Shown: piece by piece, positions 9,469-22,265 of the stretch
How the letters are laid out: the number at the start of each line of letters is the position of its first letter
Numbering within the stretch: the stretch's first letter is position 1
Program-made: the position numbers and the translations under genes
Notes under the pieces: model-generated
What the model was told of the DNA's origin: nothing
Seen by the model: only the letters and a program-made list of their open reading frames with translations
Database searches by the model: none
Source of the DNA: a virus
Virus record (IMG/VR): IMGVR_UViG_3300047160_015156
Coordinates: 1-64,000 of that record
DNA length: 64,000 bases
Strand: one strand, 5' to 3'

Positions 9469-10866
9469 ATGGCTAGTCTCGTCCTCGGAGTGCCGGCAGC
9501 GGTACTCTCGCTCATTCAGGAAGGTCTCCTCGAGCGAGAGTTCCACGACGGCCTCTTCCCCAATCTCGCGTATCGCGCCGAGTTCACGGCGGAGAAGTGG
9601 GAAGGCAATACCGGTACCGAGATCTTCATGTCTCGTCCGGGCCTCCTCGCCCCCGTCGTCACCCCCCTGCAGCCTGGCGGCGAGCCGTCGGTTGCGGACG
9701 TCCCGTACGAGCAGTGGTCGATGCGTCTCGACCAGTACGGCTCGGCGATCGACACCGACATGCCGACGTCGGCGGTTGCGAATAGCAACCTCTTCCTCCG
9801 CAACATCCATCAGCTCGGTCTCCAGGCCGGGCAGTCGATCAACCGGATCGCCCGGAACGTCATGTTCAAGGCGTACCTCTCCGGTCAGACGACCCTCCTC
9901 GCAGCGGCGAGCTCGTCGGCTACCCAGATCCGCGTCGCGGCCCTCAACGGCTTCACCGATGTCGTGATTCCGGGCACCACGGTTCGGCCGTCGCCGGTCT
10001 CCGTCGCCACCCCGCTCCCGGTCACCATCGGCAGCGGTGGATCGCTCGAGGTCAAGAACGTCATCGGGGCAGTTCCCGACAACGCGAACGACCCCTTCGG
10101 TCCGGGCACCCTGACCCTCTCCGCGAGCCTCACCAACTCGCAGTCGCTCCGTGCCTCCGTCGTCTCCGCGTACGCGCCCCGCGTCGTCCGCGCGGCCGGT
10201 GGTTCCTCGATCGACGCCATCGGTCCGGGCGACACGCTCTCGATTCAGCAGATCGTGAACGCGGTCGCGCTGCTTCGTCAGTCGCTCGTCCAGCCGCATG
10301 ACGAGGACGGGTACTACCACGCGCACATCTCGCCGCTCTCGCAGGCGCAGTTCTACGCGGACCCGATCTTCCAGCGCCTGAACCAGTCGCTCCCTGAGGG
10401 CGACGCGTATCAGGAGGGCTACGTCGACCGCATGACGGGGATCAAGTTCATCATGAACCAGGAATCCCCGACCAACCTGAACTCGGGCACCCTCATCGCC
10501 ACGGGCTCGTCGGGTCAGTACGGCCCGGAGATCGGCGCCGAGGTCACCAACGGCTCGGGCACTCAGATCGGTCGCGTCCTCATCACGGGCAAGGGTGCCG
10601 GCTACGAGCGGTACCTCGACGAAGGCCTGTACACGACCGAGGCGGGCACCACGGGCAAGATCGGTGACTTCGATGTCGTGAACAACGGCGTCACCATCCT
10701 CACCGAGCGCATCCGTCTCGTCATCCGCGCTCCCCTCGATCGCCTGCAGCAGAAGGTCAGCTCGGCGTGGTCGATCACGACGGGCTTCGCGGTTCCGTCC
10801 GACATCACCGCGCCCTCGGGTCCGCAGCGCTTCAAGCGCTCGATGATCCTCGAGCACGCGCTGTAA
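9469..10866 (+). CDS. Major capsid protein
   Basis: 465 aa, follows the scaffold, SD GGAGG, strong codon bias, followed by a terminator. Confidence 0.8.
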   Translation: MASLVLGVPAAVLSLIQEGLLEREFHDGLFPNLAYRAEFTAEKWEGNTGTEIFMSRPGLLAPVVTPLQPGGEPSVADVPYEQWSMRLDQYGSAIDTDMPTSAVANSNLFLRNIHQLGLQAGQSINRIARNVMFKAYLSGQTTLLAAASSSATQIRVAALNGFTDVVIPGTTVRPSPVSVATPLPVTIGSGGSLEVKNVIGAVPDNANDPFGPGTLTLSASLTNSQSLRASVVSAYAPRVVRAAGGSSIDAIGPGDTLSIQQIVNAVALLRQSLVQPHDEDGYYHAHISPLSQAQFYADPIFQRLNQSLPEGDAYQEGYVDRMTGIKFIMNQESPTNLNSGTLIATGSSGQYGPEIGAEVTNGSGTQIGRVLITGKGAGYERYLDEGLYTTEAGTTGKIGDFDVVNNGVTILTERIRLVIRAPLDRLQQKVSSAWSITTGFAVPSDITAPSGPQRFKRSMILEHAL

Positions 10867-13347: not shown

Positions 13348-14127
13348 ATGGGTCTCTCGAAGGCAGTTCGGGACGTTCTCTGGGGCAATCCCTTTGGCTC
13401 CGTCGTTCCCAAGCGCTCGACGCAGGTGTCAGCGGTCTACGACGGTCGCACCGCTGCTCTCCGCATCCTCCGCCGCTACATCTCCGAGCTCACCTTCTAC
13501 CGCACGGCAGGGAAGGACCTCCTCGGTAACGTCAAGGACCCGATCGCATTCCAGGTACCCGAACGGGACATCCATGTCGAGTGGCCGGATGACGAGGAGG
13601 AGATGCGACTCCCGGGGATCGCGTTCCTTGCCCAAGAGCCCGCGAATTACGACCCCATCGGAATGACCTCGAAGGTGATCGAGGACAGCAAGGACGTCTA
13701 CGGGCAGGGGACGGCGCTGATCTGGATGTCGGAGCACGTGGAAAACTTCGTGCTCGAGATCTGGACTGAGACCAAGCAACAGCGGCGGTCCATCATCCTC
13801 GGCCTCGAGACCGCGCTCTCCCCCATCGAACAGATGTCGGGGATCCGGTTCATCATGCCGGACTATTACGGGCAGCTCGTCTGCTTCGAGCTCCAAACGA
13901 AGGAGATCGTCGACGATGACACGGGGGTCATCCTCCGCCGGCGAGCGAAGCTCATCGTCCAGCTCCGATACAACGTGGTTGCCCTCTACCCCATCAACGA
14001 GCTCAACCCGCAGACCTACGTGGTGGTGGATGCCGACGAGCAGACCGGGCAACCCCTAGGAGATCCGGACCAAGAGATGGATCCGAGGCCGGCGGACACG
14101 AAGAAGAACCCCGGGCCGGGCCTGTAA
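13348..14127 (+). CDS. Tail completion / terminator protein
   Basis: Position immediately before the sheath gene. Confidence 0.55.
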   Translation: MGLSKAVRDVLWGNPFGSVVPKRSTQVSAVYDGRTAALRILRRYISELTFYRTAGKDLLGNVKDPIAFQVPERDIHVEWPDDEEEMRLPGIAFLAQEPANYDPIGMTSKVIEDSKDVYGQGTALIWMSEHVENFVLEIWTETKQQRRSIILGLETALSPIEQMSGIRFIMPDYYGQLVCFELQTKEIVDDDTGVILRRRAKLIVQLRYNVVALYPINELNPQTYVVVDADEQTGQPLGDPDQEMDPRPADTKKNPGPGL

Positions 14128-14192
14128 CACTCTGGCATGAGGGCGAATCGTACTTCAGTCTCCCTTGGAGCACACGCTCCCGGAGGAGGCCC

Positions 14193-16778
14193 ATGTCCGT
14201 CTTCATTCGACGTTTTGGATTCGACCCCGGCGAGGACGTTCTCCTCGAGATCGAATCCGTCAACATCCTCGACCTCGATCCCCCCGCCTCCATCACCGGT
14301 GTCGGGACGGGTACCGTCATCTGCGTCGGCGAGTTCGAGAACGGACCCTTCGCGGCACAAGCGGGCGTGGCGGAGATGCCGAAGGGCGTCTACGAGGTCG
14401 CGGGCGCGAACGACTTCATCCAAACCGCGGGCTCCTTCGGGTACACCTACGGCGGAATCACAGCGAACAACCCGTGCGCGCGGCAACGCTCGGCAGACTC
14501 CGCGATCACTCCGGAGGCTTGGAACGGGAACGGCTTCATCCAACTCTCGGGGAAGAAGTTCAAGCGCCTCCTGATCGCGCGCGTCGACACCTCGGTGGGG
14601 TCGGTCACCTTCTCTCGACAGGCGTACGTGACGGGGGCGGCGGAGTTCACCTACTCCCTCGCGCCGTCGCAAGTGGTCGCGGTCGCCGATTCCTCGGGTT
14701 CGACCTACACGGCTACGTTTTCGGCCGCAGCGGCGAGCGTTCTCTCCGGAAACGGCACCTACAACACCGGCTTTACCGGAGGCGAAACCCTCACCCTCTC
14801 CGTCGACGCTCAACCGGCGTTCACGGTGACCTTCCTCAGCGGCGACCAGTCGAAGGCTCAGGTCATTTCTCGGATCAACCTCTATGCCGGCTTCACCTTC
14901 GCCTCCGACGGCGGCGGGTCGAAGATCCAGCTCACCGGCATCACGAAGGGCAAGGCGGGACAGATCACGGTGGTGTCGGGCTCGGGTTCGGTCCTCACGA
15001 CCCTCGGTCTCTCGGCGGCGCAAACCTTCGGGACCGGCGATGTCAACGACATCACCGCGGTCTCCTTCCAGGAGGTCAAAGCCAAGCTCGAGGCGAACCT
15101 CACGGGTTTCCAGGTGACCCTCGACAACAACGGCGCTCTCCGTCTCAAGAAGACGTGGGCGTCGAACGATGACTGGTTCCAGGTCACGTCCTCGACCACG
15201 GCATCGGGTCTCGGGTTCACGGTCGGCGAGTTCGCGTCGAACAGCGGGTTCGCCTACATCCGGTCGGGCTCGGGCACCTACCCCGCCGCGCCGTCGACGG
15301 GTGACACTCTGATCCTCGGCAACGACGATCTCCCGAACTTCACCGTCGTTTTCCAGAGCACGGACACTTCGATTGCTCTCACCATCGCCCGGATCAATCA
15401 GTTCGCGGGCTATGCGATGGCGAGCGAGATCGACTCGACTCACATCCAACTCATCGGGGCGAAGAACGGTGGACAGGTTCGGGTCATCGGTGGGACCTCG
15501 ACCGTTCTGACCGCGCTCGGGTTCGTGGCGGGGACCACGATTCAGGCGGACTTCCTGAACTCGGGTCTCATTCCGGCGGGCACGGTCGTGCAGACGTCGG
15601 ACGGGACCAAGCAGTATGTCACGATGCAGGACGTCAACGTGACGGTCCCGAAGAACAGTCAGGTCCCCTCGGGTCCTGGCCCGTATCCGGTGAAAGTCCG
15701 TCCTGCGCTCGACGACGGCTCGGGTGCTTCTTCGAACGCAGGCACCGTGAACACGGTCGGTCGTCCGATCGATCTCGCGTCGTTCTCGGTCACCAACCTG
15801 CAGACGGTCTCGGCGGCCATGACCGAGGCCGCGATCGACTCGGCGTACTCCGACGCCTTCGATGCGACGGTCGACATCAACAGCGTCGCGAAGGACTGCA
15901 ACATCATCTTCGCCGCTCGGCAGTCGAACACCGTCCGGAAGCTCGTTCGGACGAACGTGAACCTCGCCTCTTCGACGGGCTCGCTCGGGCGCATGGGCTG
16001 CGTCCGCCCCCCGCTCAACACGGCCAAGTCGGTCGCGTACTCGAAGACGGATGTTCGGGGTGTGGCGGCGACGCGCGATCAACGGGTCATCTACTGCTAC
16101 CCCGGCTTCAACACCTTCGTCCCCCTCATGGCGAAGCGTGGCCTCGCCGGCGGCGCAGGCTTCACCGTCGACGGGAACCTCGACATCGGGAGCGATGGCT
16201 TCATGGCCTCGATCCTCTCCCAGCTCCCCCCGGAGGAGAATCCCGGTCAGCTCACGGCGTTCACCACCGCGGTGAACTCGCTCGAGACCGGCACGAATGC
16301 GCAGGGCTTCCAGATGAAGGACTACACCGCTTTCCGTGGGGCCGGCATCGCCGCGGCCCGCATGGACGATGGGACCGCGATCTTCCAATCCGGCGTCACC
16401 TCCGTCGATCCCCAGGTCTTCCCCGAACTCCGGAACATCGCGCGCCGGCGCATGGCGGACTTCATTCAGGACACCCTCGCTCGCAGGGGCAAGGCGTTCG
16501 GGAAGAAGCTCTCGACCTTCGTTCGACGCAAGGCGTACGCGAACGAGTGCTCTCAGTTCCTCGAGTCACTCCTGTCTCGGAACAACCCCGCGTCGCAGCG
16601 CATCGCCGGCTACACCGTCGATCGCAAGAGCGGCAACACCCAACGCACCCTCGGGCTCGGGCTCTACCGCCTGATCATCAAGGTCCGCACCCTCGCCTCC
16701 CTCGATTCGATCGTGCTCGAGACCACGATCGGCGAACAGGTCGAGGTCGAGGAGCAGCTCCCGGCCAACGCGGCCTAG
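14193..16778 (+). CDS. Contractile tail sheath protein with large inserted domains
   Basis: N-terminal ITGVGTGTVICVGEFENGPF and C-terminal IARRRMADFIQDTL...FLESL; SD GGAGG. Confidence 0.9.
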   Translation: MSVFIRRFGFDPGEDVLLEIESVNILDLDPPASITGVGTGTVICVGEFENGPFAAQAGVAEMPKGVYEVAGANDFIQTAGSFGYTYGGITANNPCARQRSADSAITPEAWNGNGFIQLSGKKFKRLLIARVDTSVGSVTFSRQAYVTGAAEFTYSLAPSQVVAVADSSGSTYTATFSAAAASVLSGNGTYNTGFTGGETLTLSVDAQPAFTVTFLSGDQSKAQVISRINLYAGFTFASDGGGSKIQLTGITKGKAGQITVVSGSGSVLTTLGLSAAQTFGTGDVNDITAVSFQEVKAKLEANLTGFQVTLDNNGALRLKKTWASNDDWFQVTSSTTASGLGFTVGEFASNSGFAYIRSGSGTYPAAPSTGDTLILGNDDLPNFTVVFQSTDTSIALTIARINQFAGYAMASEIDSTHIQLIGAKNGGQVRVIGGTSTVLTALGFVAGTTIQADFLNSGLIPAGTVVQTSDGTKQYVTMQDVNVTVPKNSQVPSGPGPYPVKVRPALDDGSGASSNAGTVNTVGRPIDLASFSVTNLQTVSAAMTEAAIDSAYSDAFDATVDINSVAKDCNIIFAARQSNTVRKLVRTNVNLASSTGSLGRMGCVRPPLNTAKSVAYSKTDVRGVAATRDQRVIYCYPGFNTFVPLMAKRGLAGGAGFTVDGNLDIGSDGFMASILSQLPPEENPGQLTAFTTAVNSLETGTNAQGFQMKDYTAFRGAGIAAARMDDGTAIFQSGVTSVDPQVFPELRNIARRRMADFIQDTLARRGKAFGKKLSTFVRRKAYANECSQFLESLLSRNNPASQRIAGYTVDRKSGNTQRTLGLGLYRLIIKVRTLASLDSIVLETTIGEQVEVEEQLPANAA

Positions 16779-17473
16779 TCGGGTCGACGCTTCGAGAACA
16801 GGGCAGCTCTCCCCAAGGGCTGTCCGTTCTTTTTTTGTAGGGGTGTCTCCAAGGCCTCGCGTTCGGTCATGCCCCGAGCGACACGTTGGTAAAACGTCTC
16901 TCGAGTACGACCGTAGACCTCGAGCCACTCCGCGAGAGACTTGGTCACACCATCGATCTCGATTGTTCGATTCGCTCGAGTATTGCGGTTTTGTTCGTGT
17001 GAGGTAGCCCAGCGAACGTTTCCTGGTTCGTAGTTGCCGTTATTGTCCTGACGGTCGAGGGAGTGAAGGGGGGAGGGTCGATCCCCCACGTCTTCCACGA
17101 AAGCCTCGTAGGAGTCGTTCCAGCGCTGGCAAACCCTAATCCCGCGACCACCGTACCGGGTGTAAGCGGTGTGATTCGGGTTGTTACATCGGCTCTTCAT
17201 CGACGTCCATGCCCGATACGTGGGGGTCATGGTTCCGCCGCTGGCTTCTCCGTGTCGAAGCTGAATCGTGGCTCCGTGGATTCGTTCCTGTTCTTTTCGA
17301 AGACAACCGCAGGACTTTGAACGTCCAGAAGTGAGTACGACGGAGGTCACATACTTCACTTGCCCGCAGTCGCAGTGGCACTCCCACACGACATGTCCAA
17401 GAGTGTTGTTTGGTCCGCGGCGCAAGACGGTCCAGCGCTCGAACCTCTGACCCGTGAGATCGTTCATCCTCAT
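16775..17473 (-). CDS. Free-standing HNH-type (AP2/HNH family) homing endonuclease
   Basis: DLTGQRFERWTV, WECHCDCG, SKSCGC, YGGRGIRVCQRW, SLDRQDNNGNYEPGNVRWAT..EQNRN; opposite strand to its neighbours. Confidence 0.85.
   Translation of the reverse strand: MRMNDLTGQRFERWTVLRRGPNNTLGHVVWECHCDCGQVKYVTSVVLTSGRSKSCGCLRKEQERIHGATIQLRHGEASGGTMTPTYRAWTSMKSRCNNPNHTAYTRYGGRGIRVCQRWNDSYEAFVEDVGDRPSPLHSLDRQDNNGNYEPGNVRWATSHEQNRNTRANRTIEIDGVTKSLAEWLEVYGRTRETFYQRVARGMTEREALETPLQKKNGQPLGRAALFSKRRPD
16795..16836 (+). terminator. Rho-independent terminator after the sheath, overlapping the 3' end of the HNH gene
   Basis: AGAAC-A-GGGCAGCTCT-CCCCA-AGGGCTGTCC-GTTCT followed by a T run. Confidence 0.75.
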
Positions 17474-17507
17474 AATTGGATGATAACACAATAAGAGGTA
17501 AGTGGCA

Positions 17508-17945
17508 ATGCCGAGCCAACGCATAAAGGGTCAGGAAGTTTCAATTATCATCACTCGAGACGGCAACCTCGAAGCCGAGCTCGTGGACATCAAGTCCTGC
17601 GAGTTCACCGCCGAGTTCGAGATCAAGGACGAAGGCTACCTCGGAGAGAAGACCAACCGGAAGGATGAGGTGTACAACGGGGTCAAGGGCTCGATGGAGC
17701 TCCACATCCACTCCGGTGACATCTTCGACTTCATGCAGGCGCTCAAGGACCGGGCGCAGCGGAACACTCCCGATCTCGTGTTCAACATCGCCGGCATCTT
17801 CGCCTTCCCCTCGGGCGAGATCCGGACCGTCACCATCCCCGATGTGAAGTTCGGCGCAGTCCCGATCTCGACCAACGCGCGAGGCGATTACACCTCGGTG
17901 AAGCTCGAGTTCGCAGCCGACGACTACACCGTCGAGCAGGAGTAA
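17508..17945 (+). CDS. Tail tube protein
   Basis: About 145 aa, beta-rich, between sheath and chaperone; strong codon bias. Confidence 0.8.
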   Translation: MPSQRIKGQEVSIIITRDGNLEAELVDIKSCEFTAEFEIKDEGYLGEKTNRKDEVYNGVKGSMELHIHSGDIFDFMQALKDRAQRNTPDLVFNIAGIFAFPSGEIRTVTIPDVKFGAVPISTNARGDYTSVKLEFAADDYTVEQE

Positions 17946-17952
17946 GGGGCAA

Positions 17953-18087
17953 GCGAGGAGGCGCGATCGGATCCAAGGTAGCTCCTTGGGTCCGCCTACG
18001 GGTCTCTCCGTGGAGGGCTCCCCGGATTAGCTGTCCGGGTAGGTGCGCCTCCTCGCCCTCACGGAGAGCCCACCATCACGAGGAGGC
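17953..18087 (+). ncRNA. Candidate structured cis-regulatory RNA (multi-stem, possible pseudoknot, anti-SD)
   Basis: Five complementary segment pairs read directly; see finding. Confidence 0.55.
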
Positions 18088-18090
18088 ATC

Positions 18091-18624
18091 ATGAGCACGG
18101 ACAAGATCGAAGAGCTGAGCGAAGAGCAGGCTCAGGCAGTTCTCGACGGCGAGGACGTGGAAGAGAGCGGGGACGCACCTGGACCGCACCAGGCCTCAGG
18201 AGATGCGCCGCAATGGGGGGAGCTTCCGAAAGGGCTCACGCTTCCGAGGAAGGGCAACACCGTCGCCTTTCTTCGAATCCCCGCACGATGGACCACGGAC
18301 CCCGGGAGCGGCCGCGATCGCGTGTGCCTGGTTTGGGCCATCGGCGAGACCGAAGAGCGCTTGGCCTACCAGCGCTCGAGGGGAGATGCTCATCGCTCCG
18401 TCAACGAGCTCGCGAAGGCCTGCATCCGCGCCGTCGATGGCGTCAAGGCACGATGGGATGGGAAGGCACCGGGAACGAACGGTGACATTCACGAATTCTG
18501 GACCAACATCGGCCCCAAGGGACGACAAATGGTCCGGAACTACTACATGAAGACGCACTCGGTCACGGACGAGGAAGCCCTCGATTTTTTCTCGAATCAC
18601 TTCGTCAACGTGACCGTGGGCTAG
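18091..18624 (+). CDS. Tail assembly chaperone (lambda gpG-like)
   Basis: SD AGGAGG; lies between tube and tape measure; slippery site near its 3' end. Confidence 0.75.
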   Translation: MSTDKIEELSEEQAQAVLDGEDVEESGDAPGPHQASGDAPQWGELPKGLTLPRKGNTVAFLRIPARWTTDPGSGRDRVCLVWAIGETEERLAYQRSRGDAHRSVNELAKACIRAVDGVKARWDGKAPGTNGDIHEFWTNIGPKGRQMVRNYYMKTHSVTDEEALDFFSNHFVNVTVG

Positions 18625-18908
18625 GCGTCGACGAAGACGGGTACGACAGCGATCGCGCGCTCGATATCCTCGTGCTCTTCCGACTCCCGGACGGCGAGGG
18701 TATCAGCCCGATCTGGCACCTGCAGACGGAGATCAATCTCCGCGAACACATCCTCGATCGTCCTAGGCAACGCGCCTACCTTGCCCGCTATGGGAGGCAA
18801 GACTTCTTCCAAGATCGTACTGTTTTGGAGTTGGAAGGGGCGGTTCGCGCCGTCGCTGCCATCGTCAACGAAGAGAACGAGCTGAACCGCGTACAGGAGG
18901 ACAGGTAG
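18585..18908 (+). CDS. -1 frameshift extension of the tail chaperone (gpGT-like)
   Basis: T TTT TTC heptamer at 18585-18591 in the chaperone frame; the -1 frame is open to TAG 18908, just before the tape measure ATG. Confidence 0.75.
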   Translation, partial: FFLESLRQRDRGLGVDEDGYDSDRALDILVLFRLPDGEGISPIWHLQTEINLREHILDRPRQRAYLARYGRQDFFQDRTVLELEGAVRAVAAIVNEENELNRVQEDR

Positions 18909-18909
18909 G

Positions 18910-20760
18910 ATGTCCGAGGCAAAGAACACCGCCGCTGAGGTCGGGGTAAAGCTCGTTCTCGATTCCAACGCGAAAGCGGAAACGGACAAGATCAAGTCCG
19001 GCCTCGACCACGTCGCCGACAAGGCCGGTCACACCGCGCACTCGTGGAGCTCCAAGATCGGCGAGGGTGTGAAGAAGCTCGTCGAGATGACGGGTGTAGG
19101 ACTTGCCTTCGAGGCCGGGCGCATGGGCATGGAGAAGCTCGTGGAGATCGGCCACGAAGCCTCGGAGGTGTTTCAGGAAGCGAACCGACACGTAGGCGAG
19201 ATCGCCGGCGCCCTGATGATGGTCGACCAAAAGAGCAACTCCTTCAAGAACCTGAAGGAGCTCGGATGGGACGTGAAGGATTCGATGGAGGAGATCGGGA
19301 TCAAGGCGGGCGTCTCCGGCGACGCCGCGGTCCAAGCCTTCAACAAGATCATGGAGCGTGGTGGTCGGACCATGGACCAGACCACGGAGCTCGTGGAGAA
19401 GATGGCGTACGCGGGGAAGGTCATTCCCGGTGGGCTCGATGCCATCACCCAGGGCTTCTCGATGATCGAGATGGGGGTGGTGCGCGCGCGTAATCCGCTC
19501 GTCCAGGTCATCTCGGCAACCGGTATTCTCAAGGGCAACGCCAAGTCCGTCGCGGCCCAGATGATGAAGCTGACGCCTGAGAAACAGATGGCGCTAGCGG
19601 AGAAGGCCCTCGAGAAGATGGGCGGCAAGATGAAGGATCTCCCCCTCACCCTCGCCGGGATGAAGCAGGGGATCGGGATCATCATGGACAAGGGCATGGA
19701 GTCGATCGGGCGACCGATCGTCGCCGCGCTCGCCGGACCCTTCAACAAAGTCCGGTCCTGGTTCGTGGACAATCAGGAGCTGATCTACGAGACCGGCGCC
19801 AAGTTCGGTGAGGCGATCTCGAAGGCCGCGGAAGTGGCGATGCCTTTTCTCGATGTCGGCGAGAAGGTGATCAAGGAGAGTTGGAACACCATCAACGAGT
19901 CGATGGAGGCCATGTTCGGCCCTGGGATGGACCTCTTCTCCTACATCTACGAAAACAAGGAAGCTTTCGCGGGTACCTTCGGTGCCATTCTGAAGGACAT
20001 CATCAAAGTAGGAAGCTTTTTGATCAAGGTTTTCGCCGGGATTCGTGACGTCATCGGTTCTGTACTGAATAAACTCATCAAAACCGTCGATGTTACTGGG
20101 GAATATGCCAAGTTCCTCGGCGAGGAGAAGCAGAAGAGTGAATCCGCAGACATGCGGAAGGAGATCATGAAGAAGGGGGGGCTTTCGAACGAAGAGGTCG
20201 ACAAGCATCGAAAGGCTTTCATCGAGGCGGCGCAGGAAGGGGGAATGAGCGTTCCCCAAGCCTCGGCGGACTTCGACAAGGCCTATCGCCGCGCCATGGA
20301 CGACCACCTCGCGACGATGGCCGAGGTCGAGGGGGCGAGGAATGACGCGGTCAACGATGATGCCAAGCACTACGCCATGCTCTACGACAAGGCGGCGAAG
20401 GCGAACGACACTGCTGCGATGCAGTACGTGGCGAAGTTCCTCGAAGGGAACATGAGCCTCCAAAACGCGCTGGCGAAGGAAGGTCCGGAGATCTTCAAGT
20501 CCGGGCTCGACTCCATGCTCTCCACCCTCAAGGGCATGGGAGACAAGGAGACGGCGGAGAGTCTCCGAAAGGCCATGAAACCGAGTCTCGGGACGCCGTC
20601 GAAGTCTGCCATCACCCAAAACTTCAACGGCCCGATCAACGTCAAACAAGACTTTAGGGACCAGGATCCGGACCGCGTCGCGATCGTGTTCAAGAAGGAG
20701 ATGGGGAAACTCGGACAGAATCGGCTCCAAAGTAGGATGGCGGCGCCGTTCGGCTTCTGA
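18910..20760 (+). CDS. Tape measure protein
   Basis: 616 aa, helical Ala/Gly/Lys/Met-rich; follows the chaperones. Confidence 0.85.
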   Translation: MSEAKNTAAEVGVKLVLDSNAKAETDKIKSGLDHVADKAGHTAHSWSSKIGEGVKKLVEMTGVGLAFEAGRMGMEKLVEIGHEASEVFQEANRHVGEIAGALMMVDQKSNSFKNLKELGWDVKDSMEEIGIKAGVSGDAAVQAFNKIMERGGRTMDQTTELVEKMAYAGKVIPGGLDAITQGFSMIEMGVVRARNPLVQVISATGILKGNAKSVAAQMMKLTPEKQMALAEKALEKMGGKMKDLPLTLAGMKQGIGIIMDKGMESIGRPIVAALAGPFNKVRSWFVDNQELIYETGAKFGEAISKAAEVAMPFLDVGEKVIKESWNTINESMEAMFGPGMDLFSYIYENKEAFAGTFGAILKDIIKVGSFLIKVFAGIRDVIGSVLNKLIKTVDVTGEYAKFLGEEKQKSESADMRKEIMKKGGLSNEEVDKHRKAFIEAAQEGGMSVPQASADFDKAYRRAMDDHLATMAEVEGARNDAVNDDAKHYAMLYDKAAKANDTAAMQYVAKFLEGNMSLQNALAKEGPEIFKSGLDSMLSTLKGMGDKETAESLRKAMKPSLGTPSKSAITQNFNGPINVKQDFRDQDPDRVAIVFKKEMGKLGQNRLQSRMAAPFGF

Positions 20761-20786
20761 CAGAACCAAGGGAGTCGGAGGATACG

Positions 20787-20939
20787 ATGCCTTTCCCCAA
20801 AGACATGAGCGGCGAGTCTCAGAGCGAGTCGGAATCCGACGAGACGCAGTCGGAGGAGAGTCAGAGCTCGTCCGACGCCCCCTCCGATCTCAAGAAGGGT
20901 CCGAAGCCGAATCCTCTGCGCCGCTGGGCCCAGCAGTAA
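20787..20939 (+). CDS. Small Ser/Glu-rich protein (50 aa; not in the ORF track)
   Basis: SD GGAGG; MPFPKDMSGESQSESESDETQSEESQSSSDAPSDLKKGPKPNPLRRWAQQ. Confidence 0.55.
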   Translation: MPFPKDMSGESQSESESDETQSEESQSSSDAPSDLKKGPKPNPLRRWAQQ

Positions 20940-20954
20940 CGCCAAGGAGGCGAC

Positions 20955-22265
20955 ATGCCTCTTTCCGTACCCGTACCCCTCGACCAGCTCGCGAATGTCG
21001 GTTCCTCGATCACCATCGAGGAGCTCACCCCGACTACGCCCGGAGGACAGCCTCGCCGAATCGTCCTCATCGGCGGCGCTCTCCCTTTCATGGGACAAGC
21101 GGATTGGAGCGGTGACGGGCGCATCCTGACCACCTGGTATCCGGGCAACGGTACCGAGGCCTCCCAACAGAACCTCGGACCCCAGGATATGCCTAGCGCG
21201 TGGTCGGGGGAGTGGAACCGGACGCGCATGGGTCGCGCCCCCTCCTACTACTTCGACGAATACGGGGCTATGAGCCTCGTGGTGGACCCCCATGTGCTCT
21301 GGGGGAACCTGGATGCCATCCGCATTGCCGGAGCGCGTCTACGGGTCACGTGGAGCGTGCGCGGGCGGTCCGTGACTGGCTCCCCCAAGACGGGCTCCGA
21401 CTCGCCGGTGGACTTCAACCTCGTGCGCGAGGGTCGGATCAAGGTCCTGAAGATCAGTCCCGACCGCCTCACGGACATGAAGTGGAACATGGAGCTCCAC
21501 TGGATGTCCCGCGGGGGGACGCAGGACAAGATCTCGAACGTCCGCCGCGACGACGACATCTCCAAGGCCGTGACCGCGGTTTCGAGCTCGATTGGCGCCC
21601 TGAACGACCTCCTCGCGATCCGGACGCAGGCGATCATTGACTCGAAGTTGGCTTCGGTGACGACCCTGAGTCTCGGCCAGCTCGAGGCGATGGCGAATGC
21701 TCCGCTCAAGGCGGTGAACGCGGCGCTCTCGAAGCTCCGCTACAACCTCGGCCAACTGAACCGGGTGGCGTCGCTGGCGAAGAAGCTGGCAACGACCCCG
21801 GCGGCGGTGGCCAACTCGGTCCTCGACTTCGCCCGCGACACTCAGGCGGTGGCGAACGACTTCGTCGACTCGATGGGCCGGACCCCGATCGAGCTCCAGA
21901 CCAACAAACAGAAGGTGGCCGACCTCGTTCGGGCGTCGAAGTACTTCGGCAACATCACCGACGGCATGAACGACACGGCGAAGCAGAGCTCCGACCTCGA
22001 CATCCGCATGCGGCAAGCGCTCGTAGCCGGCGCGAATCGGGGCTCGCTGGCGGTCAAGGACGCGTCGACGAAGCAGAACGACATCATGGCCGTGTACGTG
22101 TGCAAGACCGGGGACACGCCGCAGCGGGTGTCGCTGAAGTACTACGGCAACCCAGACCAGGGTGATGCAATCCTGAAGGCAAACAGGCGACCGCTGTACA
22201 CACCGTTTTTCAGGCCAGGCCTCATCCTGGTGATCCCGAACCTCTCCCAACTGCCGCGGACCTGA
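20955..22265 (+). CDS. Tail tube initiator / baseplate protein with a C-terminal LysM-like domain
   Basis: C-terminal YVCKTGDTPQRVSLKYYG...ILKAN...PGLILVIP; follows the tape measure. Confidence 0.7.
   Translation: MPLSVPVPLDQLANVGSSITIEELTPTTPGGQPRRIVLIGGALPFMGQADWSGDGRILTTWYPGNGTEASQQNLGPQDMPSAWSGEWNRTRMGRAPSYYFDEYGAMSLVVDPHVLWGNLDAIRIAGARLRVTWSVRGRSVTGSPKTGSDSPVDFNLVREGRIKVLKISPDRLTDMKWNMELHWMSRGGTQDKISNVRRDDDISKAVTAVSSSIGALNDLLAIRTQAIIDSKLASVTTLSLGQLEAMANAPLKAVNAALSKLRYNLGQLNRVASLAKKLATTPAAVANSVLDFARDTQAVANDFVDSMGRTPIELQTNKQKVADLVRASKYFGNITDGMNDTAKQSSDLDIRMRQALVAGANRGSLAVKDASTKQNDIMAVYVCKTGDTPQRVSLKYYGNPDQGDAILKANRRPLYTPFFRPGLILVIPNLSQLPRT

Follow-up and report, generated by a model that had tools for sequence, protein, structure and literature searches.

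We find that the 145-nt gap between the tail tube gene and the tail assembly chaperone gene of an uncultivated soil phage is occupied by a structured RNA, which belongs to a family of at least 34 distinct elements from soil and sediment phage sequences, every one of them downstream of a tube homologue. The RNA combines three boxes with a long helix (helix B): a Shine-Dalgarno (SD) mimic (Box1), an anti-SD (Box2) and the real SD region of the chaperone gene (Box3). Box2 is complementary to both SD-type boxes, the three boxes change in a coordinated manner in some lineages, the two competing pairings are equally stable, and the position after the tube gene is fixed. On balance, we favor a cis-acting toggle or step-down device that would act on translation of the gene following the tube and whose most likely role would be to set the amount of chaperone relative to tube protein; from the position of the element, control of the tube:chaperone:tape-measure stoichiometry can reasonably be inferred.

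The window, i.e., the whole 64,000-nt stretch of DNA that was analyzed, makes up the first 64 kb of an IMG/VR virus record of 98,216 bp; it has ~62% G+C and comes from a phage whose source is soil metagenomes. The genes that define the setting of the element are the following.

9469-10866, + strand: head protein (phrog_1357)
14193-16778, + strand: 861-aa protein assigned to no family
16775-17524, minus strand: HNH endonuclease (phrog_374, 2e-72)
17508-17945, + strand: tail tube gene, 145 aa, with its ATG at 17508 (the longest ORF starts with a GTG at 17502)
18091-18624, + strand: tail assembly chaperone gene, 177 aa; slip heptamer of the -1 type at 18585-18591, with the extended frame running without a stop to 18908
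18910-20760, + strand: tape-measure candidate, 616 aa, named by position only

A baseplate-hub-like protein is encoded after the 616-aa gene, also on the + strand. The 145-aa protein has a weak PHROG match to phrog_365 (tail protein) and 177 homologues in the protein collection, every one called at 145 aa. Its AlphaFold2 model, built from 46 homologues (pLDDT 72.7), finds the tube proteins of diffocin, 80alpha, and pyocin R2 as best Foldseek matches (E 8e-6 to 1e-4, TM ~0.65-0.70), and the protein is thus predicted to fold as a tail tube protein. The next gene lies on the tube side of the tape-measure candidate, and the classic arrangement of a slippery heptamer and a -1 frame reaching the next start (open to 18908, with the ATG of the next gene two bases on at 18910) supports its label as a chaperone of the lambda G/GT type; both gene labels of the preliminary description therefore hold. 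In 85 of the fetched loci, the tube gene has a chaperone homologue downstream. The chaperone protein has no sequence match in Pfam, PHROG, or the Protein Data Bank (PDB), neither the tube nor the 861-aa protein has a PDB sequence match, and no match came from blastn and tblastn searches of 50,697 annotated phage records or from an IMG/VR locus search starting from the chaperone. The sequencing runs listed for this phage include none of RNA, and four soil DNA sequencing runs returned identical contigs only, with variants absent.

The gap extends from the end of the tube stop at 17945 to the chaperone ATG at 18091-18093, and every helix and hairpin listed in the preliminary description can be read in its sequence. 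The parts of the element, all on the + strand, are as follows.

17953-17964, + strand: Box1, the SD mimic and anti-anti-SD, forming the 5' arm of helix A; a GGAGGCGC-type box conserved in the family
17968-17994, + strand: hairpin 1, 11 bp including one G.U, loop UAGCU; optional and variable
17995-99 with 18039-43, + strand: short helix CCUAC/GUAGG, read from the sequence
18000-18012, + strand: 5' arm of helix B (B5'), comprising GGG, a 1-nt bulge, and 9 nt, from the RNAalifold consensus
18021-18039, + strand: hairpin 2, 6 bp with a 7-nt loop
18045-18056, + strand: Box2, the anti-SD, which is the 3' arm of helix A; GCGCCUCC-type, the most conserved block of the family
18060-18071, + strand: 3' arm of helix B (B3'), ending in the CCC of a conserved CCCACC (18069-18074)
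18079-18087, + strand: Box3, the real chaperone SD region, of the same sequence type as Box1
17954-18093, + strand: whole element as matched by the covariance model (cmsearch 89.3 bits, E 3e-12)

The mimic begins at the 8th nucleotide past the tube stop, as had been described. The makings of a three-box switch are present in the window: an anti-SD complementary to the real SD (18047-55 is the exact 9-nt complement of 18079-87, which holds the SD) and an upstream competitor for the same anti-SD (the 12-bp helix A, 17953-64 with 18045-56). A 9-bp pairing of 18004-12 with 18060-68, within helix B, crosses the 12-bp helix. The strands are interleaved in the order Box1, B5', Box2, B3' and likewise in the order B5', Box2, B3', Box3, so that either combination, helix A with helix B or helix B with Box2:Box3, would make a pseudoknot with short linkers. 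These measure 3-8 nt (where hairpin 1 is absent) and 4-7 nt, compared with helices of 9-12 and 13-17 bp; the linker from Box2 to B3' is 4-7 nt in nearly all members. The strand arrangement is that of an H-type pseudoknot, with interleaved helices of which B is strongly and A moderately supported.

Folding the single sequence adds little. RNAfold predicts a three-way junction that has the 12-bp helix as its closing stem, with a minimum free energy of -78.9 kcal/mol (z = -2.7; 3 of 200 shuffles as stable), and the opposite strand folds about equally well (z = -3.4); with a z score that is only moderately unusual and a reverse strand as stable, the fold alone is weak evidence. G.U pairs are frequent in helix B and in Box1:Box2 and would be A.C mismatches on the opposite strand, which argues that the RNA is read from the + strand. 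A cmscan of positions 17000-19000 against Rfam 15, with E up to 10, matched no relevant family, in line with the earlier suggestion of a structured RNA outside Rfam, which the family of related elements and its covarying helix bear out. The sole output of that scan is an unrelated hit to cow-rumen-1 at 18089-18115 (14.7 bits, with a gathering score of 53.4). A scan of 14000-22000 for intrinsic terminators placed no terminator-like site in 17946-18090, and neither helix is followed by a T-run. ARAGORN found no tRNA-like or tmRNA gene in the window. No sign of self-cleavage emerged. A repeat or mobile element can likewise be set aside: BLAST of the 145 nt against the 98,216-bp genome returns the self-match only (one copy), the covariance model gives this one match and none elsewhere in the window, and no repeat family covers the site.

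We gathered relatives through an alignment of 46 tube sequences, which led to 80 metagenome, 80 IMG/VR, and 2 MAG loci; the fetched loci leave out the closest tube relatives (P0002-P0016, 78-91% identity). The covariance model (R1) was built from 21 sequences, was fitted to helix B only, and recovers the family of at least 34. Its members share one order of parts: Box1 (GGAGGCGC type) a few nucleotides past the stop, the optional hairpin 1, and a UAYGGG that opens the variable B5', followed by a variable hairpin 2, Box2 (GGUGCGCCUCC type), B3' ending in CCCACC, Box3, 4-9 nt, and the AUG. The end of B3' lies a median of 23 nt from the start codon (interquartile range [IQR] 20-25). Presence of the element tracks the tube phylogeny, as the counts by tube identity illustrate.

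Tube identity 60% or more: 6 unique loci, element in 6
Tube identity 50-60%: 23 unique loci, element in 15, and in 4 more recognized only by eye
Tube identity 45-50%: 47 unique loci, element in 8, and in 1 more by eye
Tube identity 40-45%: 33 unique loci, element in 0
Tube identity below 40%: 9 unique loci, element in 1

The gap between the tube gene and the next gene follows the same course, measuring 100-170 nt at tube identities of ~48% or more and 10-45 nt in more distant relatives; in the 40-45% loci, where the element is absent, the chaperone starts 10-45 nt past the tube gene. Three pattern scans of IMG/VR for the boxes produced 62 distinct loci, which were then filtered with the covariance model. 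Those that passed are L168, L169/L171/L175, L172, L173, L184, L192, L196, and L198. For L168 and L169/L171/L175, we confirmed that a tube homologue lies upstream, and L172, L173, L184, L192, and L196 lie on contigs previously fetched via the tube protein; the pattern-scan elements with checked context, L198 not among them, thus occur only on tube-encoding contigs. The remaining pattern-scan loci proved to be chance matches after model filtering, and among the elements with checked context no other gene setting emerged.

Helix B pairs the stretch that separates Box1 from Box2 with the one that separates Box2 from Box3, crossing Box1:Box2. From a structure-blind MAFFT alignment of 21 elements, RNAalifold picks B5':B3' as the consensus, with 13 pairs, 12 of which have compensatory double changes. 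In this alignment, 83.5% of helix B cells are paired (61.3% after shuffling) with a covariation of 0.606 (0.225 shuffled), and in the model-based alignment of 34 elements, 88.4% are paired (60.2% shuffled) with a covariation of 0.716 (0.205 shuffled); 0 of 500 shuffles reach the observed covariation in either alignment, a comparison to be read with the proviso that such shuffles ignore phylogeny. The model-based alignment further contains 120 helix B cells with double changes (37.6 shuffled), and controls with slid strands give 0.12-0.19. The closing G-C pair is invariant in 34/34 members, and the unpaired flanks are conserved, UAY before the helix and ACC, often ACCA, after it. Given covariation on both alignments and the invariant closing pair, we accept helix B as real and strongly covarying. 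The crossing helix had been noted in the preliminary description, which proposed covariation in relatives as the check; helix B passes it strongly, and Box1:Box2 and Box2:Box3 both rise above their shuffled and slid controls.

For the boxes, the pair counts are not circular, because the model alignment was fitted to helix B alone. Across the 34 members, Box1:Box2 is paired in 79.9% of cells, with a covariation of 0.137 (0.091 shuffled), and Box2:Box3 in 82.4%, with a covariation of 0.118 (0.072 shuffled), neither value being reached in any of 500 shuffles and slid controls remaining at or below 0.062. Eight pairs of each show a double change, relative to 4.7 and 4.9 after shuffling (2/500 in both cases), and the two pairings use identical Box2 columns. 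For the boxes, too, the shuffles ignore phylogeny, and relatedness alone can exceed this control. Since most box columns are invariant, this signal rests on few lineages, in which Box1, Box2, and Box3 can be seen to change together: GGAGGCUC / GAGCCUCC / GGAGGCUC in L041, GAGGCAC / GUGCCUC / GAGGCAC in L023, a GCGAC / GUCGC / GCGAC core in L100, and AGAGG / CCUCU / AGAGG, inside the SD core, in L043. The changes in L041, L023, and L100 lie outside the SD core, so that pairing with 16S rRNA does not explain them and RNA-RNA pairing can.

The median duplex energies are -20.6 kcal/mol for helix A, -20.0 kcal/mol for Box2:Box3, and -24.9 kcal/mol for helix B, and of the 30 members with an adjacent Box3, 15 have helix A as the stronger competitor. 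Box1:Box2 and Box2:Box3 are therefore iso-energetic across the family, which is what a toggle predicts. The earlier proposal that the anti-SD can pair with either the mimic or the real SD has accordingly gained ground, as both pairings are conserved, iso-energetic, and, in some lineages, co-changing. In a crude partition function that leaves out the arms of helix B, the SD has a median probability of 0.19 of being unpaired, which falls to 0.002 when Box1 is masked. The same thermodynamic modeling has the SD mostly paired without masking of Box1 in many members, so a constitutive damper fits as well as a switch, and a constitutive damper or insulator in place of a switch is possible.

In the mechanism that we propose, the element would act within the late mRNA to govern initiation at the chaperone and probably also at the tape measure behind it. 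Helix A, with Box2 held by Box1, would leave the real SD free, and the pairing of Box2 with Box3 would block chaperone initiation; helix B would enclose Box2 in its loop and hold Box1 and Box3 just outside as competitors. The two pairings may alternate in vivo, and translational output would follow the alternation, the expected net result being a reduced, tunable chaperone output at a point where the demand for protein probably falls sharply. One candidate trigger is the ribosome terminating on the tube gene, which might cover or fray Box1 ("anti-coupling"), an idea that the spacers support only partly. Co-transcriptional folding order, in which helix A would form before Box3 exists, or a trans factor is an equally open choice of trigger.

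The spacers bear directly on the first of these triggers. Between the tube stop and the base where helix A starts to pair, the median distance is 9.5 nt (IQR 6.8-14.5), with more than 9 nt in half of the members, the longest spacers between stop and Box1 being 122 and 382 nt. A terminating ribosome unwinds only ~5 nt and covers ~9 nt beyond the stop, so it could open helix A directly only in some members. The claim that the mimic is within reach of the terminating ribosome is weakened to that extent: in about half of the members, the spacer is too long for helix A to be unwound directly. We consider it possible, if somewhat unlikely, that the element is a ribosome-position sensor, in which the finishing ribosome would displace the decoy and the anti-SD would lock the chaperone SD in a pseudoknot; such a sensor could alternatively be gated by a protein or ligand. 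If it exists, it would tie chaperone and tape-measure synthesis to a fixed, small share of the tube synthesis from one mRNA, and the structural modules of phages would have a new class of RNA device that sets stoichiometry.

Other parts of the window element are not general. Hairpin 1, which had been listed as part of the fold, is absent from at least 12 of the 34 members, and its stems are unrelated in sequence between the members that have one; hairpin 2 is predicted in most members, with variable sequence. The CCUAC/GUAGG helix, judged by eye, is confined to the closest relatives. Kissing between the loops of hairpins 1 and 2 had also been suggested, and loop complementarity does occur in some subclades, with differing sequences: AGCU/AGCU in the window phage, and GGCAAAG/CUUUGCC in L092, L029, and L031, with a compensated version one base shorter in L032. 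As a family feature, we reject it, because the mean complementarity is 2.9 relative to 2.3 for mismatched loops, a few subclades drive the significance, and hairpin 1 is often missing.

Several loci carry genes inserted after the element, and in these the core (Box1, helix B, and Box2) stays with the tube gene. In L002, L034, and L097, a + strand gene resembling tail completion/Neck1 has been inserted and the adjacent Box3 is lost, the inserted gene's own SD sitting in B3' in L002 and L034. L085 has a + strand gene after the element, with Box3 retained before that gene. A minus-strand gene separates element and chaperone in L087, L088, and L089, leaving Box3 ~500-600 nt away in L088 and L089, and L105 has an HNH endonuclease directly after the tube gene. 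A Box3-type SD precedes the next + strand gene in L034, L085, L088, L089, and L097, and that gene is a chaperone match on contigs long enough to include it; no Box3-type motif precedes the next gene in L002 and L087. Since the element stays with the tube gene despite these insertions, part of its function may serve the tube transcript and not the chaperone SD.

This persistence at the tube 3' end, even where inserted genes lie on the opposite strand, speaks for reading the element as a stability or processing signal for the tube transcript, one that would block 3' exonucleases or mark an RNase P- or RNase III-like site; in the processing variant, an endonuclease site would uncouple the tube mRNA from the downstream low-copy genes. 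The great stability of the structure fits, and the conserved A-C-C after helix B, often ACCA, recalls the end of an acceptor stem. The nucleotide after ACC is not invariant, however, ARAGORN and Rfam are negative, and such a signal explains neither why the start codon lies at a conserved ~23 nt nor the likeness of Box1 and Box3 beyond the SD core and their co-change with Box2; we regard it as unlikely. We put a touch less weight still on a trans-factor operator, in which a phage or host protein (e.g., the chaperone or the tube) or a small ligand would decide the winning pairing, and which would supply the trigger of the toggle and not replace it. A simple damper would hardly need so complex a fold, with its crossing helix, invariant G-C pair, conserved unpaired flanks, and fixed linkers, and pseudoknot operators of ribosomal proteins such as rpsO offer a precedent (PMC3985624). 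Against an operator, few conserved unpaired nucleotides are on offer for a binding pocket, the hairpins that could hold protein sites vary and one is dispensable, and no candidate binder was identified.

The mimic could also act positively, as a standby or shunt site on which a ribosome or 30S subunit is held and then transferred via helix B to the chaperone AUG. Box1 is a good SD near the stop codon in most members, helix B brings it together with the start region, and in members without hairpin 1 it lies 6-11 nt before an AYG, with the full look of a ribosome-binding site; the tisB pseudoknot is a precedent (PMC7708055). Yet Box1 is complementary to Box2 and predicted to be paired with it, freeing Box1 would free Box2 to block the real SD, in opposition to re-initiation, and two members have the element 122-382 nt past the tube stop. 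Moreover, a library screen, as cited in a 2025 review, associates structure directly after the stop codon with weaker coupling (PMC12548453). Such positive coupling appears improbable to us. Least credible of all, and very improbable, is a recoding signal or a small-ORF leader, with a pseudoknot ~8 nt past the stop stimulating readthrough or frameshifting, or with Box1 driving a mini-ORF from the AYG triplet that follows it. Readthrough or frameshifting of the tube gene was rejected because the frame meets a stop after 11 codons and no extended frame is conserved; hairpin lengths also differ between relatives, in unrelated sequences, and gap length is not conserved. The mini-ORF was rejected because its start triplet is not conserved, being AUG in only 11 of 34 members, and its stops fall at scattered positions in each of the three frames.

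A clade of phages from soil and sediment, uncultivated and with genomes of ~100 kb, carries a dedicated covarying RNA exactly at the tube/chaperone boundary. From a single late transcript, tailed phages need hundreds of tube subunits but only small numbers of chaperones and tape measures, and, to our knowledge, how the step-down from tube to chaperone is encoded has been established for few phages, usually as just a "weaker ribosome-binding site." If the toggle reading is right, the element would be a well-defined natural part for controlling the ratio of adjacent genes, a clean system in which two identical SDs compete for one anti-SD, and a marker motif for tube/chaperone junctions in metagenomic phages without protein family matches.

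Alternative sequestration of an SD is already well known, and the element can be compared with several systems that use it. The ermC and cat attenuation leaders are alike in that the position of an upstream ribosome would decide the pairing and the exposure of the SD. The logic would be inverted, as a stalled ribosome frees the SD in those leaders whereas a ribosome on Box1 would close it here, and the upstream ORF here is a full structural gene and not a leader peptide. We know of no stalling signal for the phage element. In the expression platforms of thiM TPP-type riboswitches, one anti-SD likewise pairs with either an upstream competitor or the real SD, in a mutually exclusive manner (PMC2018614). 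The phage element differs from these in having no recognizable aptamer or ligand, a competitor that is itself a copy of the SD, an intercistronic position instead of a 5' leader, a long crossing helix as scaffold, and no Rfam match.

Coupling in MS2 coat-lysis, f1 VII-IX, and rpmI-rplT similarly relies on intercistronic structure at the downstream ribosome-binding site to link neighboring genes, with a long-range pseudoknot in rpmI-rplT as in the phage element (PMC12548453). In those systems, the inhibitory partner lies in the upstream coding region and upstream translation activates, whereas here all partners lie in the 145-nt spacer and the SD mimic would be a decoy. Successive SD/anti-SD pairings and a pseudoknot also govern access to the ribosome-binding site in aapA1 (PMC6733600) and tisB (PMC7708055); there, the structures act within the 5' leaders of toxin mRNAs that are monocistronic, and they require processing and involve different genes and sequences, with no homology to the phage element. 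We found no description of the element in the literature searched. What is new is the family itself and its architecture: a real SD with an identical decoy, a long crossing helix, and an intercistronic site after the tube gene.

Comparison of phage loci related to the window identifies the junction between the tail tube and chaperone genes as a hot spot for gene insertion, judging by the gene order of these relatives, with the inserted genes ranging from an HNH endonuclease to small ORFs and tail completion-like genes.

Genes inserted at the tube/chaperone junction of relatives
L105:2945-3946, minus strand, HNH endonuclease (PF13392)
L087:3047-3514, minus strand, small unknown ORF
L088:3075-3470, minus strand, small unknown ORF
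L039:2935-3282, minus strand, small unknown ORF
L002:3542-4063, plus strand, gene like tail completion/Neck1 (phrog_5, weak)
L097:3106-3609, plus strand, gene like tail completion/Neck1 (phrog_5, weak)

In relatives that carry the RNA element, the insertions never fall inside it and always lie beside it: the insertion point follows the 3' arm of helix B (B3', ending in CCCACC) in most of them and precedes the SD mimic (Box1) in L039. The window itself has an HNH gene on the other side of the tube gene, between the latter and the 861-aa gene, with its 5' end overlapping the tube gene start.

HNH endonuclease gene of the window
16775-17524, minus strand, HNH endonuclease (phrog_374, E 2e-72)

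Because the tube gene directly follows the 861-aa gene in L002, the window HNH gene looks like a mobile insertion. A terminator-like hairpin with a T-run is found at 16801-16835, between the 861-aa gene end and the HNH gene 3' end.

Within the element, members lacking hairpin 1 carry an AYG triplet where helix B starts, 6-11 nt downstream of the SD mimic. Real ribosome-binding sites are spaced in this way from their start codons; no conserved mini-ORF was found after the mimic and triplet in these members.

SD mimic and AYG triplet in the element alignment (A5)
Column 8, window 17961, SD mimic
Columns 69-71, window 17998-18000, AYG triplet

Elsewhere, a perfect 18-nt palindrome (CTGAACATCGATGTTCAG type), which may be a phage operator or promoter-associated site, is present in five copies spread across the window.

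Palindrome copies
Window 2112, 22261, 31759, 42784 and 61238

Chaperones of the element-bearing clade have an acidic N-terminal extension of ~40-50 aa (window 18091-18230); those of more distant relatives are ~125 aa long and lack both this extension and the RNA element. Near the chaperone gene end, 18585-18591 reads U UUU UUC, a -1 slip heptamer of canonical form, and the -1 frame is open for 107 codons (18585-18908), ending 2 nt upstream of the ATG (18910) of the 616-aa gene, which by position occupies the place expected for the tape measure gene.
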